The position numbers and the translations under genes were made by a program. A stretch of DNA of 64,000 bases from Planctomycetota bacterium (GTDB lineage: Bacteria; Planctomycetota; UBA8108; SXIK01), in assembly GCA_965223265.1 (NCBI GenBank), contig OZ244999.1:704001-768000 (forward strand), in the 5' to 3' direction. Under the pieces are notes generated by a model, which worked only from the letters and a program-made list of their open reading frames with translations, had not been told where the DNA came from and made no database searches. This document shows, piece after piece, positions 19,951 to 46,258 of this stretch (position 1 is the first letter of the stretch; each line of letters begins with the position of its first letter).

Positions 19951-20180
19951 CATTGCAAACGCAGGAGACTTCACCCGCCGCTCGTGCAGCGGGCGCGGAG
20001 ATTCAGAGACAGATTCAGATTCGGAGACAGAGACGGATTCAGCTTCAGTTTCAGATTCAGAGACAGACACAGAGACAGCTTCAGAGACAGAGACAGCGAC
20101 AGCGACAGATTCAGAGACAGAGACAGCTTCAGATTACAGATTCAGAAGTAGAGTACTCGTACACCCGCGCCCACGCGCAT
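19951..20180. repeat. 46-bp conserved motif followed by a degenerate hexamer array (GATTCA/GAGACA/GCTTCA) and a short CACGCC-type tail
   Basis: Motif is 36/46 identical to 45498-45543; about 25 hexamer units at 19999-20150; lies between convergent genes. Confidence 0.85.
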
Positions 20181-39155: not shown

Positions 39156-39505
39156 TGCGCGATTGCGATGGCGTGCGGGCGTGGGTGTCCATGACGGTGG
39201 GTGTGGGCAGACCAGCGCTCGGTGTGTGAGTCAGTCCCGACAGTTGCACAAGTTTTTGCAGGAAGGGCTCAGAAACCCTTTCCCTGAGGTTCGATCGGCA
39301 GTTGAGGGACGTCGTGGCGGACCACGTTTGGTGAGGTTGACGGTGTGCCGTGTTCCCCCTCGCCCACGCACACCCACACGCAAACTCTCACTCAGTCGCA
39401 ATCGCGCACGGTCTTAAGGTGCGTCTCTTTTGCAACGTTGGGGTCAGTCTCAGTCTCTGCCTCCGCCTCCGTTTCTGTTTCCGCCTCCGTTTCTGTCTCC
39501 GCCTC
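39156..39505. repeat. Inverted hexamer-array region (GCGTGG/GGTGTG vs CACGCA/CACACG) followed by a TCTGCC/TCCGCC/TCTGTT array that is the IS110 insertion site
   Basis: TGCGCGATTGCGA (39156-39168) is the exact reverse complement of 39396-39408; pyrimidine hexamers at 39444-39505 resume at 41161. Confidence 0.75.
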
Positions 39506-39556
39506 AGAAACTATGGGCCGTCCTCGTGTACCATAGTCTTTTTTAGGAGTGAAGAG

Positions 39557-40684
39557 ATGGCAACAAGAACGACCCAGGGACAGCTTACCGACATGAGCGA
39601 AGTTCTTCACGTGGCAATTGACGTTGGCAACACAACGTGGAAGCTCGTCAGCGGTGTTGCGGGGAGCCGGCCGCGCTGCAGGACGGTCGAGGCGGGAAAC
39701 CTTGCGGAGTTTCAGGAAGAGCTCTCGAAAGCCAAGGCGCGCTTGCGCCTTTCGCCGCAAGCTGAGGTGGTGAGCTGCTACGAAGCTGGCCGCGATGGAT
39801 TCTGGCTGCACCGTTGGCTCGTAGACAGTGGGATCCACAACGCCGTCATTGACCCGGCTAGCTGCGAGGTCGATCAGCGCGCCAAGCGTCAAAAGACCGA
39901 TCGCCTCGACGGAGAGAAGATGCTCGATCTTTTGATCCGTCACCACGGCTCGTCGCGCAGCCCACTGCGCGTTGTCAACGTGCCGAGCGTGCAGATCGAG
40001 GACGAGCGCCGCCTGCCAAGAGAGCGTCAGCGCCTTGTCAAGGATCGCACTCGGCACATCAATCGCCTCAAGGACATGTTGATCAAGTTCGGCATCCGCG
40101 CCCGCCTCAAGAAGCTGCCTGAAATCATCGACACGTTACGCGGCCCCGATGGATCTGCGATCCCCCCGCATGCCAAGGCAGGCATGCTACGCGAGCACGC
40201 TCGGCTGCAGCTTGTCGAAGAGCAAATCGCTGAGATTGAGGCCGAGACTCTCGAAACGCTCACCAACTCGCCGGAGGCCTGCAAGAAAGTCGGCAAGCTC
40301 AACAGCCTGCGCGGCATCGGCATGTACACTGCCGCAACGCTCTACTACGAGTTCTTCTGGCGTAAGTTCAACAATCGCCGTGAAATCGGAGCCCTGGCAG
40401 GAATGGTGAGCGTTCCCTGGCGCAGTGACAACATCAAACGCGAGCAAGGAATCAGCAAAGCTGGCAACGGGCGTGTACGCACACTCATGGTTCAGGCTGC
40501 CTGGAACTGGCTGCGCTTTCAGCCACAGAGCCAGCTATCTCAATGGTTCTGCCAGCGCTATGGGCCAGGCACCAAGCGCTCGCGCAAGGCGGGAATCGTC
40601 GCCTTAGCCAGAAAGCTGCTCATTTCGCTCTGGCGATTCCTCAGCACTGACGTACCACCTCCGTTGGCACGGCTCAGTTCCTAA
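39557..40684 (+). CDS. IS110-family DEDD recombinase/transposase
   Basis: AIDVG, CYEAG, KTDRLDG (DEDD); LRGIG; PWRSD catalytic Ser; GISKAGNGRVRTLMVQAAW; AGGAG RBS. Confidence 0.95.
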   Translation: MATRTTQGQLTDMSEVLHVAIDVGNTTWKLVSGVAGSRPRCRTVEAGNLAEFQEELSKAKARLRLSPQAEVVSCYEAGRDGFWLHRWLVDSGIHNAVIDPASCEVDQRAKRQKTDRLDGEKMLDLLIRHHGSSRSPLRVVNVPSVQIEDERRLPRERQRLVKDRTRHINRLKDMLIKFGIRARLKKLPEIIDTLRGPDGSAIPPHAKAGMLREHARLQLVEEQIAEIEAETLETLTNSPEACKKVGKLNSLRGIGMYTAATLYYEFFWRKFNNRREIGALAGMVSVPWRSDNIKREQGISKAGNGRVRTLMVQAAWNWLRFQPQSQLSQWFCQRYGPGTKRSRKAGIVALARKLLISLWRFLSTDVPPPLARLSS

Positions 40685-40759
40685 TTCGATGACCAGCAAC
40701 AGGCTCAACACACCAACCCAACTCAAACGGAGGGACCTGCAGGGCTGACTCGGATTCTT

Positions 40760-40920
40760 GGCCGACTGTAGGACGCGTTCGAGCAGAGGCTGGGCTGGCT
40801 TTCCAAGCCGCCGTGCTTCTCAGAAGGAACCGTCCTTGTCGGTTCGCCTGCCGCGATGCGAACGCAGTATCAGGTGATCCGCCAGAGAGCGGACACGCAT
40901 AGGAGTTGGCCGCGAGGCGC
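40760..40920 (+). ncRNA. Candidate bridge/seek RNA: two stem-flanked internal loops
   Basis: Loop 1 stems CCGAC/GTCGG, AGGACG/CGTCCT, GTTC/GAAC; loop 2 stems CGCCT/AGGCG, TCCGC/GCGGA; loop sequences match target and donor ends. Confidence 0.7.
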
Positions 40921-41200
40921 TTTGCCGCCCCGGCGCTCAGAGCGAACCGAACACTTGGCTTCTTTACCGCCAGCCCAAAGACAACACAGCACTACTACGA
41001 AAATGATCTCTCCCGCGTGCGGTACCTTCCGGGCTGCACAGAGCCCGGGGGCGCTCTACCCGCCGCCCCCCGGACCCCCAGGCAACCCAACTGCCCCACG
41101 TCGGATTGAAGACAATCAAGAAAAGAAAGCTCCCCCGTTGACAACAGTCGGACCATAGGTGCCTCTGCCTCTGCGCCTCTGGTCTCCTTTTTCCCCGTAG

Positions 41201-41854
41201 CTACTTCAACCCGTTCGTCTCTTTAAACGTTCGCCAGTTTTGTTTCAGCTCGAGGAACGAGCTGATATCCGGCGCCAGCAGGAAAGGATTCGTCGCTTTT
41301 TCAAGCGCCACGGTCGATGCCGGGCGGCAGCCGTAGTCGTGTCCCGGCCAAACGGTCGTGTCGTCCGGCACTTCCTTGAGCACGCGCTGCAGGCTGTCGT
41401 ACTCTTGCCGTGCTGCGGCTTCCGTTGCTGTACCACCGATTTTGCCGACGAAAATCAAGTCTCCTGTGATGGCAACGCGTTCAGCTGGCAGGTGGAGCAA
41501 GATGTGGTCATCGGCATGGCCTGGAACATGAAGAACGCGCACTCGGAGCGATCCGATGTCGATGATCTCACCGTCGGAGAGTGGCTTCTGAGGCGCACTT
41601 TGAGCTTCCTTCCACGCAGCAAGAGGCGCGCCTGTTAGTTCGCGCGCCGCGTCGTTCCCGTTGATATGATCTGGGTGGCCATGGGTGTTGACGACGCAAG
41701 CGACATCGAGTGACTGCGCTCGGGTGCGCTCGACGACAGCTTCGGGAGCGTACGACGGGTCGATGATCATCGCGACGCCCGCCTCCCGGTCTCCAAGTAC
41801 GTACGCGAAATTCCGATCGCCGCCGGTACGGATCTGCTCGAACACGAAGCGCAT
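41201..41854 (-). CDS. Metallo-beta-lactamase fold hydrolase (glyoxalase II-like)
   Basis: THGHPDH, PGHADD, TGDLIF, PGHDY. Confidence 0.9.
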   Translation of the reverse strand: MRFVFEQIRTGGDRNFAYVLGDREAGVAMIIDPSYAPEAVVERTRAQSLDVACVVNTHGHPDHINGNDAARELTGAPLAAWKEAQSAPQKPLSDGEIIDIGSLRVRVLHVPGHADDHILLHLPAERVAITGDLIFVGKIGGTATEAAARQEYDSLQRVLKEVPDDTTVWPGHDYGCRPASTVALEKATNPFLLAPDISSFLELKQNWRTFKETNGLK

Positions 41855-45337: not shown

Positions 45338-45485
45338 GCGACGGAGGTAGCGACAGAGGCGGAGACGGAGACAGAGACGAAAAGCCCGCCGCACACGAGA
45401 ACGCCCACGCCCACGCCCACGCCCACGCCCACGCCCACGCCCACGCAATCGCAATCGCAATCGCAATCGCAATCGTTCACGCCCA
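45338..45485. repeat. Bipartite hexamer array: GAGACG/GAGGCG block, then ACGCCC x7 and ATCGCA block
   Basis: Read directly; begins at the GDPD stop codon. Confidence 0.9.
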
Positions 45486-46065: not shown

Positions 46066-46258
46066 ACAGATTCAGAGACAGAGGCAGCATCAGAAGCAGA
46101 TACCGATCCAGAGACGGAGACGGGCTGCACACGCCCACGCTCACGCAAACGCTCACGCACACGCACACGCACACGCACACGCACACGCACACGCACACGC
46201 AAACGCACACGCCCACGCACACGCACACGCACACGCACACGCACACGCTCACGCAAAC
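46066..46258. repeat. Bipartite hexamer array: GATTCA/GAGACA/GAGGCA block, then about 21 CACACG/CTCACG/CAAACG units
   Basis: Read directly. Confidence 0.9.

Follow-up and report, generated by a model that had tools for sequence, protein, structure and literature searches.

An insertion sequence, IS-A, lies on the plus strand of the window (the whole 64,000-nt stretch of DNA analysed) at 39506-41159, embedded in an array of degenerate hexamers (Table 1); its extent of 1654 bp was set by contigs that carry the empty allele. The encoded transposase matches Pfam PF02371 (E 3.6e-14) and PF01548 (E 4.1e-10), with E76, D115, D118 and a G298-I299-(S300)-K301-(A302)-G303 block invariant across 26 aligned homologues, and it combines the DEDD N-terminal domain with the C-terminal Tnp domain bearing an S/T-G motif that define the IS110 family. 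Non-coding DNA amounts to 475 nt 3' of the gene (40685-41159) and 51 nt 5' of it (39506-39556). The subterminal inverted repeats CTATGGGCCG (39511-39520) and CGGACCATAG (41149-41158) are complementary at 9 of 10 positions, leaving terminal extensions of 5 nt (left) and 1 nt (right); CTATGAAGGGC and GCCCTCATAG are their equivalents in relatives, whose ends were defined from guide matches, a search for exact-match inverted repeats being too noisy. Insertion is site- and orientation-specific and occurs without duplication, as in the IS1111 group.

Table 1. Positions of IS-A, its flanks and the elements of its predicted RNA (window coordinates).
Feature	Position	Strand	Description
Left target flank	39441-39505	+	GYCTCY/GTTTCY units, ending ...CCGCCTC; TRF 39456-39505; left side of the empty allele stops at 39505
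Whole element IS-A	39506-41159	+	AGAAACTATGG...GGACCATAGG; ends common to 8 copies; skip of 1654 in X1, X2
Left end	39506-39520	+	AG (39506-39507) at the family AG-core position; CTATGGGCCG, subterminal inverted repeat
Transposase gene	39557-40684	+	375 aa; DEDD/RuvC-like N-domain and IS116/IS110/IS902 C-domain (Pfam)
Stem-loop 1 (predicted target-binding loop)	40771-40835	+	Outer helix 40771-40780/40827-40835; inner hairpin 40793-40812
5' strand guide AGCAGAGGCU	40782-40791	+	GCAGAGGC (40783-40790) complementary to top-strand GCCTCTGC, 41161-41168
3' strand guide CUUCUC-AGAA	40816-40825	+	CUC, last bases of left flank; AGAA, element bases 1-4
Second domain	40841-40948	+	Long-range helix GGUUCG (40841-40846)/CGAACC (40943-40948); helices 3-6
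Predicted donor-loop 5' strand AACGCAGUAUCAG	40861-40873	+	AGUAUC, complementary to 5/6 bases of left end GAAACT
Predicted donor-loop 3' strand GCAUAGGAGUUG	40897-40908	+	CAUAGG-AG (CAUAGGAG), equal to right end CATAGG followed by the AG of the element
Tandemly duplicated segment	41002-41089	+	89 nt extra in 3/8 copies; single in the window copy
Right end	41138-41159	+	TTGACA (41138-41143), then 16 nt to the end; CGGACCATAG, subterminal inverted repeat
Right target flank	41160-41183	+	TG (family core position, from target), then CCTCTGCCTCTGC..., hexamer array

Copies, flanks and an empty allele

The genome holds eight near-identical copies of IS-A with identical transposases (tblastn), which vary at four SNP columns and by one 89-nt indel; the joint of the corresponding duplication (41089 to 41002, with one intervening G) is present in runs X1 and X2. 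All eight lie in GYCTCY hexamer arrays in a single orientation, none at an unrelated site, and each has the right flank TG(C/T)CTCTGCC, the point of insertion being between YCTC and TG(C/T)CTCTGCC. The 12-mer CTCTGCCTCTGC occurs 60 times against about one expected (18.4 Mb over two strands), and 83 degenerate target sites in the genome are free and 8 occupied. A second, unrelated IS1111-type element, IS-B, occupies the same arrays on the opposite strand.

The empty allele of the window locus is represented by a 4409-nt contig from runs X1 and X2 in which 39505 is fused straight to 41160: 1654 nt, with ends AG..GG, are skipped, the joint has no letters in common and duplication is absent. This evidence is drawn from contigs, not raw reads, and the contig agrees with the window without mismatch across 141 and 241 nt. 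In X3 (from the sample of X2) and X4 (from that of X1), contigs lead out of the right flank and into the element. Empty and occupied alleles thus coexist in the sequenced material, which suggests that IS-A is mobile there and, if so, makes the predictions below testable at the bench.

The preliminary description had rightly pointed to GCCTC at both junctions (39501-39505 and 41161-41165), and had read it as a possible 5-nt core common to donor and target that would be duplicated on insertion, with a circle junction CATAGGT-GCCTC-AGAAACT. Indeed, GCCTC (seven copies) or GTCTC (one copy, alike on both sides) borders all eight copies, and the target-loop strands are mutually complementary over ~6 bases in the MFE fold. 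The empty allele, however, retains both GCCTC units around a joint without common letters. It points to a simple 1654-bp insertion and reads GCCTC-TGCCTC, whereas the in-phase GTCTCC-GCCTC array that removal of the element was said to restore is one hexamer short. Between the skip of 1654 that was seen and the 1660 expected from a 5-nt core lies exactly one repeat unit, a discrepancy that slippage by a hexamer could in principle mimic, hiding such a core. The GTCTC copy is equally accounted for by a GTCTCT-GTCTCT target. The presence of GCCTC on either side follows from the periodicity of the array and is not an insertion product. We also considered and rejected a crossover inside the CTC or TC of GCCTC, for which the GTCTC copy would require a matching mutation of the element end and which the empty allele also contradicts.

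Five of the eight copies form one tandem cluster (genome 487256-496009) in which 1743- and 1654-bp variants alternate and a 53-nt spacer is seen twice. Because of this alternation and the repeated spacer, duplication of a two-copy unit within the cluster is suggested by its sequence, and the clustered copies do not count as independent events. The same arrangement lends itself to a broader account in which the copies spread mostly via recombination, slippage or segmental duplication in or between arrays and any match to an RNA is incidental. This we consider very unlikely: the three dispersed copies have array flanks that differ and yet the exact same junction, empty and occupied alleles coexist at the window locus, and guides covary with flanks across the family, in unrelated hosts.

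A conserved RNA downstream of the transposase gene

Distantly related transposase genes have a structured RNA on their 3' side in 126 of 147 cases (127 of 148 counting IS-A). The profile of this RNA, built without the IS-A row, matches the window at 40744-41024 (E 3e-38) and the genome at the eight copies only, and an Rfam scan of 39300-41400 with E up to 1 matched no family. Over 27 pairs and 27 sequences, 94.9% of cells were paired, as compared to 87.6% in shuffled and at most 46.2% in slid alignments. Compensatory changes were seen in 15 pairs versus 7.3 expected, and none of 500 shuffles reached the observed values. RNAalifold on the whole nhmmer alignment returned almost no structure, the helices emerging from alignment blocks and from an independent alignment made with MAFFT. 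When the non-coding region was folded as a single sequence (z-scores -0.73 and -0.99), the two guide strands paired together, and these folds were excluded from the evidence.

The RNA comprises two parts. In stem-loop 1, helices 1 and 2 have 96.3% and 93.8% of cells paired, with compensatory changes in 2/6 and 4/6 pairs, respectively. The second domain holds three hairpins (40852-40860, 40874-40896 and 40909-40936) inside a long-range helix that the MAFFT alignment did not recover and that is drawn from duplex energies (-12.9 kcal/mol with its own partner vs -10.6 with swapped partners) and compensatory examples. Of the two similar internal loops described earlier, loop 1 is a true internal loop with compensated helices, but the strands of loop 2 flank a hairpin in a multi-helix junction. 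The RNA is presumably expressed, and it would be bound by the transposase. With 126 further loci, the family is large and aligns well, and guide positions can be read in it directly from the flanks.

Guides of the target loop and the flanking arrays

The loop sequences lie where they had first been placed: GCAGAGGC at 40783-40790, TCTC at 40818-40821, AGTATC at 40866-40871 and CATAGG at 40898-40903. In the target loop, the guide complementary to the top strand is 5' of that complementary to the bottom strand. The match of IS-A to the array is 8/8 on the right (register -1), with U40791 opposite T41160, where relatives would have A. On the left, the RNA matches the last 3-4 bases of the flank (CCTC): the last bases agree at 3/3 and UCUC of the 3' guide fits with one rU:dG wobble, making for a short guide of three exact bases plus the wobble, with 4/7 left-flank positions matched. 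The register, thought unusual at first, is shared by 13 of 47 well-matched family members. The 8-mer complementarity is above chance because it falls on those columns of the alignment that the family's guide occupies, no search window being needed.

Across the family, guides follow the flanks of their own element. On the right the mean match is 6.65/8 (3.34 when permuted), 27 of 60 unique guides reaching 8/8, and on the left 3.84/7 (1.81 when permuted); none of 2000 permutations reached the observed match on either side, and the covariation of loop 1 with targets across homologues, which the preliminary description had put forward as a check, is thereby borne out. Identity of the 3' guide to flank positions -1, -2 and -3 is 93, 84 and 69%, and to element bases 1-4 it is 100, 100, 98 and 86%. 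A change of AGAU to AGAA in the RNA goes with left-end AGAA in 2/2 loci, a covariation that is weak since seven loci pair RNA AGAA with left-end AGAT. Given that family guides covary with flanks and that IS-A follows the family rule, comparison of the sequences supports RNA-programmed targeting of the hexamer microsatellite.

Either the protein or some unusual DNA structure adopted by the polypyrimidine array might instead set the target, the RNA having another role such as transposase regulation, and the short left guide and one mismatched core position would be in keeping with this. We hold it to be even less probable than spread by duplication, because the variable loop strands follow each element's own flanks (0/2000 permutations) and experiments have established that seek and bridge RNAs of this family type determine the target (PMC11187229, PMC11208160).

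From the Pfam domains and the conserved, covarying RNA, as already proposed in the preliminary description, and from the insertion behaviour, we take IS-A to be an insertion sequence of the IS110 family, IS1111 type, that is active and carries a predicted 3' RNA of the bridge/seek type, and give this explanation as a whole a probability of about 0.85. Its target loop would read both strands of YCTC-TG-CCTCTGC, which recurs in GYCTCY arrays, its 5' strand GCAGAGGC pairing with top-strand bases on the right-hand side of the insertion site. Two further strands, AGUAUC and CAUAGGAG, match the abutted element ends, and the DEDD/serine recombinase would then join the 1654-bp circle, always in the same orientation and without duplication, to ...GCCTC on its left and TGCCTC... 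on its right. The circular intermediate and the order of strand exchange are presumptive.

Element ends, core position and known systems

The two donor-loop strands had been proposed to match the element ends, and the 3' strand bears this out: an RNA that reads ATAG(G)AG accompanies a right end of CATAG(G) in 3/3 loci (L087, L088 and IS-A), and the other 75 have A in both. The left-end half, on the 5' strand, is the weaker one, matching at 5/6 bases; the family has AGUAU against left end ATACT, and compensatory change between this strand and the left end was not seen. Left ends are AGATAC, AGATGC or AGATCC in 73/75 family loci and AGAAAC in IS-A. On the right, TTGAC is present in 73/78 loci, and in 46/78, IS-A among them, 16 nt separate the TTGACA hexamer from the element end.

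These features also bear on the 5-nt core. By family homology the core position comes directly after CATAG and one further base, which sets the end of IS-A at CATAGG; the sequence of the RNA strand is CAUAGG-AG rather than CAUAGGUG; and a circle containing GCCTC would space TTGACA and GAAACT by 23 nt, compared to 17 nt (TTGACA-17-GAAACT) in the plain abutment CATAGG-AGAAAC. Taken with the empty allele, this leaves a shared 5-nt core unlikely. A circle junction CATAGG-AGAAAC, in contrast, fits the family geometry and the RNA CAUAGGAG strand and is the predicted one. No circle joint was seen in the run contigs, and in linear IS-A no promoter-like site was found.

At the family AG-core position the element carries AG and the target TG, departing from the identical core of the IS621 paradigm, and in every insertion product AG stands at the left junction and TG at the right one. 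After CATAG, relatives read AAG in 74/78 loci, and one uninterrupted paralogous site (L160) is flank-AG-flank. Both target-loop strands keep AG-type bases, and the TG of the array leaves one position mismatched on both; the lone AG 12-mer of the genome, CTCAGCCTCTGC, is unoccupied. Donor AG facing target TG would be a tolerated mismatch. More tentatively, we suggest that IS-A may routinely use such a non-identical core, that the microsatellite may act as a self-renewing landing pad on which tandem clusters grow, and that at least two unrelated IS1111-type lineages may have converged there. If this were true, either exchange of one strand alone fixes the outcome or the true overlap is a single G. 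IS-A offers a natural test case for how much identity is needed at the core position, with a bearing on off-target rules in bridge editing.

Elements with seekRNAs in the IS1111 group include ISEc11, ISPa11, ISKpn4 and ISPst6 (Siddiquee et al. 2024, PMC11187229). IS-A resembles the group in its DEDD transposase, long downstream non-coding region, subterminal inverted repeats and duplication-free insertion, as well as in guide order, with overlap at the insertion point (PMC11187229). Its transposase of 375 aa is longer than the 330-350 aa of the tight IS1111 cluster (PMC11187229), a comparison of lengths with no tree placement. As in the bridge RNA of IS621/IS110, there are two loops, with one strand per DNA strand (PMC11208160, PMC13626964). 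In IS621, however, the RNA is in the left end and 5' loop strands read the bottom strand, whereas in IS-A it is in the right end with strand order reversed; an identical CT core is at both boundaries of IS621, whereas element AG meets target TG here; and the donor strands of IS-A are in a multi-helix junction, unlike those of IS621 (PMC11208160, PMC13626964). In IS621/IS110 the core is inside both guides and the circle junction reconstitutes a promoter (Durrant et al. 2024, PMC11208160), and additional 'handshake' base pairing involves the exchanged strand (PMC11208160; Hiraizumi et al. 2026, PMC13626964).

The target of IS-A differs from those of the IS1111 elements above in being a hexanucleotide microsatellite instead of a REP, attC or transposon end. 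The REP-targeting ISPpu9 likewise lands in a multi-copy intergenic repeat (PMC12288879), and ISPpu10 is named among the IS110-family elements (PMC11208160). REP is an imperfect palindrome with a single site per unit, whereas in the microsatellite a site recurs with every unit or every second unit and, unlike in REP, sites are regenerated on both sides of the insert, which fits the five-copy tandem cluster. ISPpu10 and ISPa11 are both said to target REP. IS492 is reportedly flanked by the 5-bp sequence CTTGT. This apparent 5-bp end repeat resembles that of IS-A, which is a property of the array rather than an insertion product; for IS492, duplication is visible in the target logo (PMC11187229). 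A search by title and abstract of mostly open-access literature for IS110/IS1111 elements with microsatellite or tandem-repeat targets returned nothing relevant, although Supplementary Table 5 and the data of Durrant et al. or the target logos of Siddiquee et al. may include this family or targets of this kind. Hexamer arrays are a new class of target, but the mechanism itself is already known; IS-A adds a microsatellite to the targets that RNA-guided IS110/IS1111 recombinases are known to use in nature, and targeting of arrays would explain the tandem insertion-sequence clusters in this genome's hexamer arrays.

Relatives of IS-A were found in none of 3 genomes of the same family and in 3 of 400 other genomes sampled from the phylum (E 1e-40), and a metagenome scan with a single transposase protein as query gave none above 48% identity. 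Proteins with 56-74% identity (P0001-P0004) were also seen, at the protein level.

IS-A copies and the hexamer arrays

The window forms bases 704001-768000 of a single host contig of 9,179,496 bp (60.8% G+C). IS-A, an IS110/IS1111-type element of 1654 bp, lies between a hexamer array ending at 39505 and another starting at 41160, with non-coding parts of 51 nt upstream and 475 nt downstream of its gene, whose product is assigned to the two Pfam families that define IS110-type transposases. BLAST and tblastn found eight copies in the genome, with identical transposases and variation at four SNP columns; three of them also carry an 89-nt tandem duplication. The segment doubled in these three corresponds to window 41002-41089, between the conserved RNA described below and the right end, and the joint of the duplication was also found in contigs of the public sequencing runs X1 and X2. 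A single array holds five copies in head-to-tail order, with hexamer spacers of 53, 71, 53 and 35 nt. Because the 89-nt-longer and short variants take turns along this array, the cluster probably arose in part by duplication of a two-copy unit rather than by five separate insertions; at least two insertions plus that duplication probably account for the whole.

Features of IS-A, its RNA and IS-B (W, window; G, genome contig G000:C1)
Feature	Coordinates	Strand	Remarks
IS-A transposase gene	W 39557-40684	+	sole long gene, 375 aa; PF01548 E 4.1e-10, PF02371 E 3.6e-14
Stem-loop 1	W 40771-40780 with 40827-40835 (outer helix); 40793-40812 (inner hairpin)		large internal loop between
Second domain	W 40841-40846 with 40943-40948		closed by GGUUCG/CGAACC; contains three hairpins
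Dispersed IS-A copies (3)	genome 743506, 5868346, 906241		
IS-A cluster	G 487256-496009		5 copies head to tail, one array; L002, L003, L006-L008
IS-B	G 402107-403772, 5606457-5608185, 5870050-5871720		last partly in L004 and L038

All eight copies are oriented alike with respect to the array strand and share the junctions ...[C/T]CTC^AGAAAC...CATAGG^TG[C/T]CTCTGCC (^, junction). The genome has 53 strict GYCTCY runs (Y = C or T) of four or more units, at 45 loci, the 12-mer CTCTGCCTCTGC occurs 60 times versus ~1 expected, and degenerate target sites comprise 83 free and 8 occupied ones.

By genome-wide count, the minus strand carries most GYCTCY arrays up to ~2.1 Mb and again beyond 8.3 Mb, the plus strand carries those at ~3.0-5.9 Mb, and the two are mixed at 7.4-7.7 Mb, an orientation that may follow the replichores. 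A conserved core of ~45 nt (...CACGGTCTTAAGGCGCGTCTCTTTTGCAACGTTGGGGTC) occurs at window 39371-39441 and at ten further sites in the genome (among them 779185, 5482653, 7451171 and 9142258). Hexamer arrays adjoin it on both sides, of CACNCN type on the left and of GYCTCY or CAGAGN type on the right, and the arrays are therefore part of a composite repeat unit. In the window, this core has a run depth several-fold higher than its flank. Intergenic six-base arrays of several kinds are abundant in the genome; further ones in the window lie at 19999-20146, 45401-45475 and 46127-46255, with units AGATTC/CAGAGA, ACGCCC/CGCAAT and GCACAC. Two isolated solo right ends correspond to the terminal 70-120 nt of IS-A, one with 92% identity (G000:C1 6414614-6414687, adjoining an array of 30-nt period) and the other with 81% (5827833-5827942).

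A conserved RNA with target-matching guides

Transposase relatives of IS-A at 47-51% identity number in the thousands (E < 1e-30 in 7999 of 8000 scored candidates). From 80 loci in genome records and 80 in metagenome contigs we kept 148 downstream regions of at least 300 nt without N, IS-A among them, and iterative nhmmer seeded with the IS-A non-coding region recovered a conserved segment in 127. The profile built from the other 126 rows, without IS-A, matches window 40744-41024 (E 3e-38), and its matches in the genome are confined to the eight IS-A copies; Rfam gave no match to the IS-A RNA region. Applied to 27 sequences aligned independently with MAFFT, RNAalifold predicted 27 pairs in six helices. 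Paired cells reached 94.9% compared to 87.6% when shuffled and at most 46.2% with partners slid, and compensatory changes occurred at 15 pairs compared to 7.3 expected, values attained by none of 500 shuffles. Support for the long-range GGUUCG/CGAACC helix consists of compensatory examples and duplex energies. The preliminary description had recognised two similar internal loops, with motif coordinates that all proved correct on checking the sequence; this holds for loop 1, the target loop in stem-loop 1, and is only approximate for 'loop 2', whose strands flank the middle hairpin of the second domain.

Guides and flanks were compared by anchoring on the conserved family ends, AGAT(A/G/C)C(T/C)ATG... 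on the left and ...CATAGAAG on the right. The 5' strand of loop 1 is the base-by-base complement of the 7-9 nt after the right end, along a diagonal that falls from 84% to 58-68%. The 3' strand equals the last left-flank bases (93, 84 and 69% identity at -1, -2 and -3) and continues as AGAU, matching element bases 1-4 (identity 100, 100, 98 and 86%). With one row per distinct guide and mismatched locus pairs as control, the right-side score was 6.65/8 versus 3.34 (27 of 60 guides perfect) and the left-side score 3.84/7 versus 1.81. Loop 1 thus covaries with targets across homologues, own flanks being matched beyond all 2000 permutations on right and left alike. The guide that pairs with the top strand precedes the other, the order reported for IS1111 seekRNAs and opposite to that of IS110/IS621 (PMC11187229; PMC11208160).

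The IS-A guide GCAGAGGC (40783-40790) falls in the family guide columns and pairs at 8/8 bases with 41161-41168; one rG:dT wobble is needed at the GTCTC-flanked copy. CUC (40819-40821), or UCUC with one rU:dG wobble, is the end of the left flank, and AGAA (40822-40825) the first four bases of IS-A. The register, in which the final base of the guide is paired to the core-position G and followed by U, had been thought unusual. It is not, being used by 13 of the 47 family members having at least 6/8 matches, nine of these 13 also having UG at that place. IS-A therefore follows the family rule, and the RNA-guided targeting of arrays that had been proposed is supported, with array junctions in one orientation at every copy.

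Empty allele, core position and predicted circle junction

A 4409-nt contig in X1 and X2 matches 39365-39505 and resumes at 41160, a skip of 1654 (ends AG..GG) with no mismatches on either side and no letters fitting both, and the empty site reads ...CCGCCTC^TGCCTCTGCC... As contigs of X3 (from the sample of X2) and X4 (from that of X1) pass from the right flank into IS-A, empty and occupied alleles coexist. GCCTC, present on both sides of the window copy (another copy has GTCTC on both), had been taken for a shared 5-nt core. The insertion is instead a plain 1654-bp addition without duplication, and the repeated GCCTC is array periodicity. With a 5-nt core the skip should be 1660, longer by exactly one repeat unit, a difference that a hexamer slip could mask; such a core is nevertheless unlikely, given independent points to the contrary, among them the donor strand of the RNA, the family ends and the TTGAC spacing.

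The family donor strand GGAUAGAAGG has the sequence of the right end, CATAGA, followed by AG; that of IS-A is GCAUAGGAG and its right end CATAGG. G at this RNA position is otherwise found only in L087 and L088, two relatives that both have CATAGG, and the other 75 loci have A in both RNA and right end. The left-end half of the donor-loop match is weaker: the 5' strand AGUAUC complements five of six left-end bases, with no compensatory change.

In relatives, the element begins with AG and the right junction is CATAGA-AG in 74 of 78 loci. Since one uninterrupted paralogue of the repeated target at locus L160 reads left flank-AG-right flank, AG appears, on this single example, to be their shared core. 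At the core position of IS-A the element has AG and the target TG; in 8/8 copies the left junction has AG and the right TG, and AG-type bases are kept on both target-loop RNA strands. Either a mismatch may be tolerated at the first base of the core or the effective overlap may be a single base. Just one 12-mer in the genome has AG (CTCAGCCTCTGC); it is unoccupied and not part of an array.

No circle junction was seen in public-run contigs; by abutment it should read CATAGG^AGAAAC, and not CATAGGT-GCCTC-AGAAACT as earlier proposed. Of 78 loci, 73 carry a TTGAC hexamer in their right end, and in 46, IS-A included, 16 nt separate it from the end of the element; abutted IS-A ends give TTGACA-17 nt-GAAACT (GATACT in most relatives). 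The junction earlier proposed would space the two by 23 nt, and the RNA strand reads CAUAGG-AG. Linear IS-A has no promoter-like site; junction promoters are described for ISEc11, ISEc21 and IS621 (PMC11187229; PMC13626964).

The preliminary description was thus largely right in its observation and right in its main interpretation, its inferences on core, register and circle junction being unsupported. Mechanism and family are already known, IS-A being an IS1111-type element with a seek/bridge RNA. New are the target class, a hexanucleotide microsatellite, the tandem cluster as its consequence, and the non-identical core position; searching the openly accessible literature by title and abstract brought up no IS110/IS1111 element described as targeting microsatellites.

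Other elements beside short repeats

IS-B, a second IS1111-type element of ~1666-1671 bp (four left and seven right ends counted), has a transposase only ~25% identical to that of IS-A and is inserted into the same hexamer arrays, with the other strand as its target: ...GGAGA^TGGGATGAGAAGG...CTCATGGAAGG^CAGAGAC. In one place an IS-B and an IS-A copy are 49 nt apart. The 3' region of IS-B has TCTCTG and, further 3', GACGGAG, right and left flank matches in IS1111 order. A third IS110-family gene (G000:C1 2060395-2061255, 28% identical to IS-A) has a left end, ATGGGATGAGAAGGCCAATCC, similar to IS-B, its element being inserted after GCAAACGAAGCAAACGAAGA near CACGCA/CACTCC arrays.

Relatives in other hosts also lie beside short tandem repeats. 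L083 (~2330-2400) is immediately after (GAAACCT)n, but its left guide agrees with no more than the two final bases of the flank, too little to establish the repeat as its target; L156 and L200 are near (GGTGAAG/GGTGAAAGA)n, in their upstream parts. Upstream in L156, a solo right-end-like piece, GCCTCATAGAA, sits inside a REP-like palindromic target ~21 nt before the left end of the full element.
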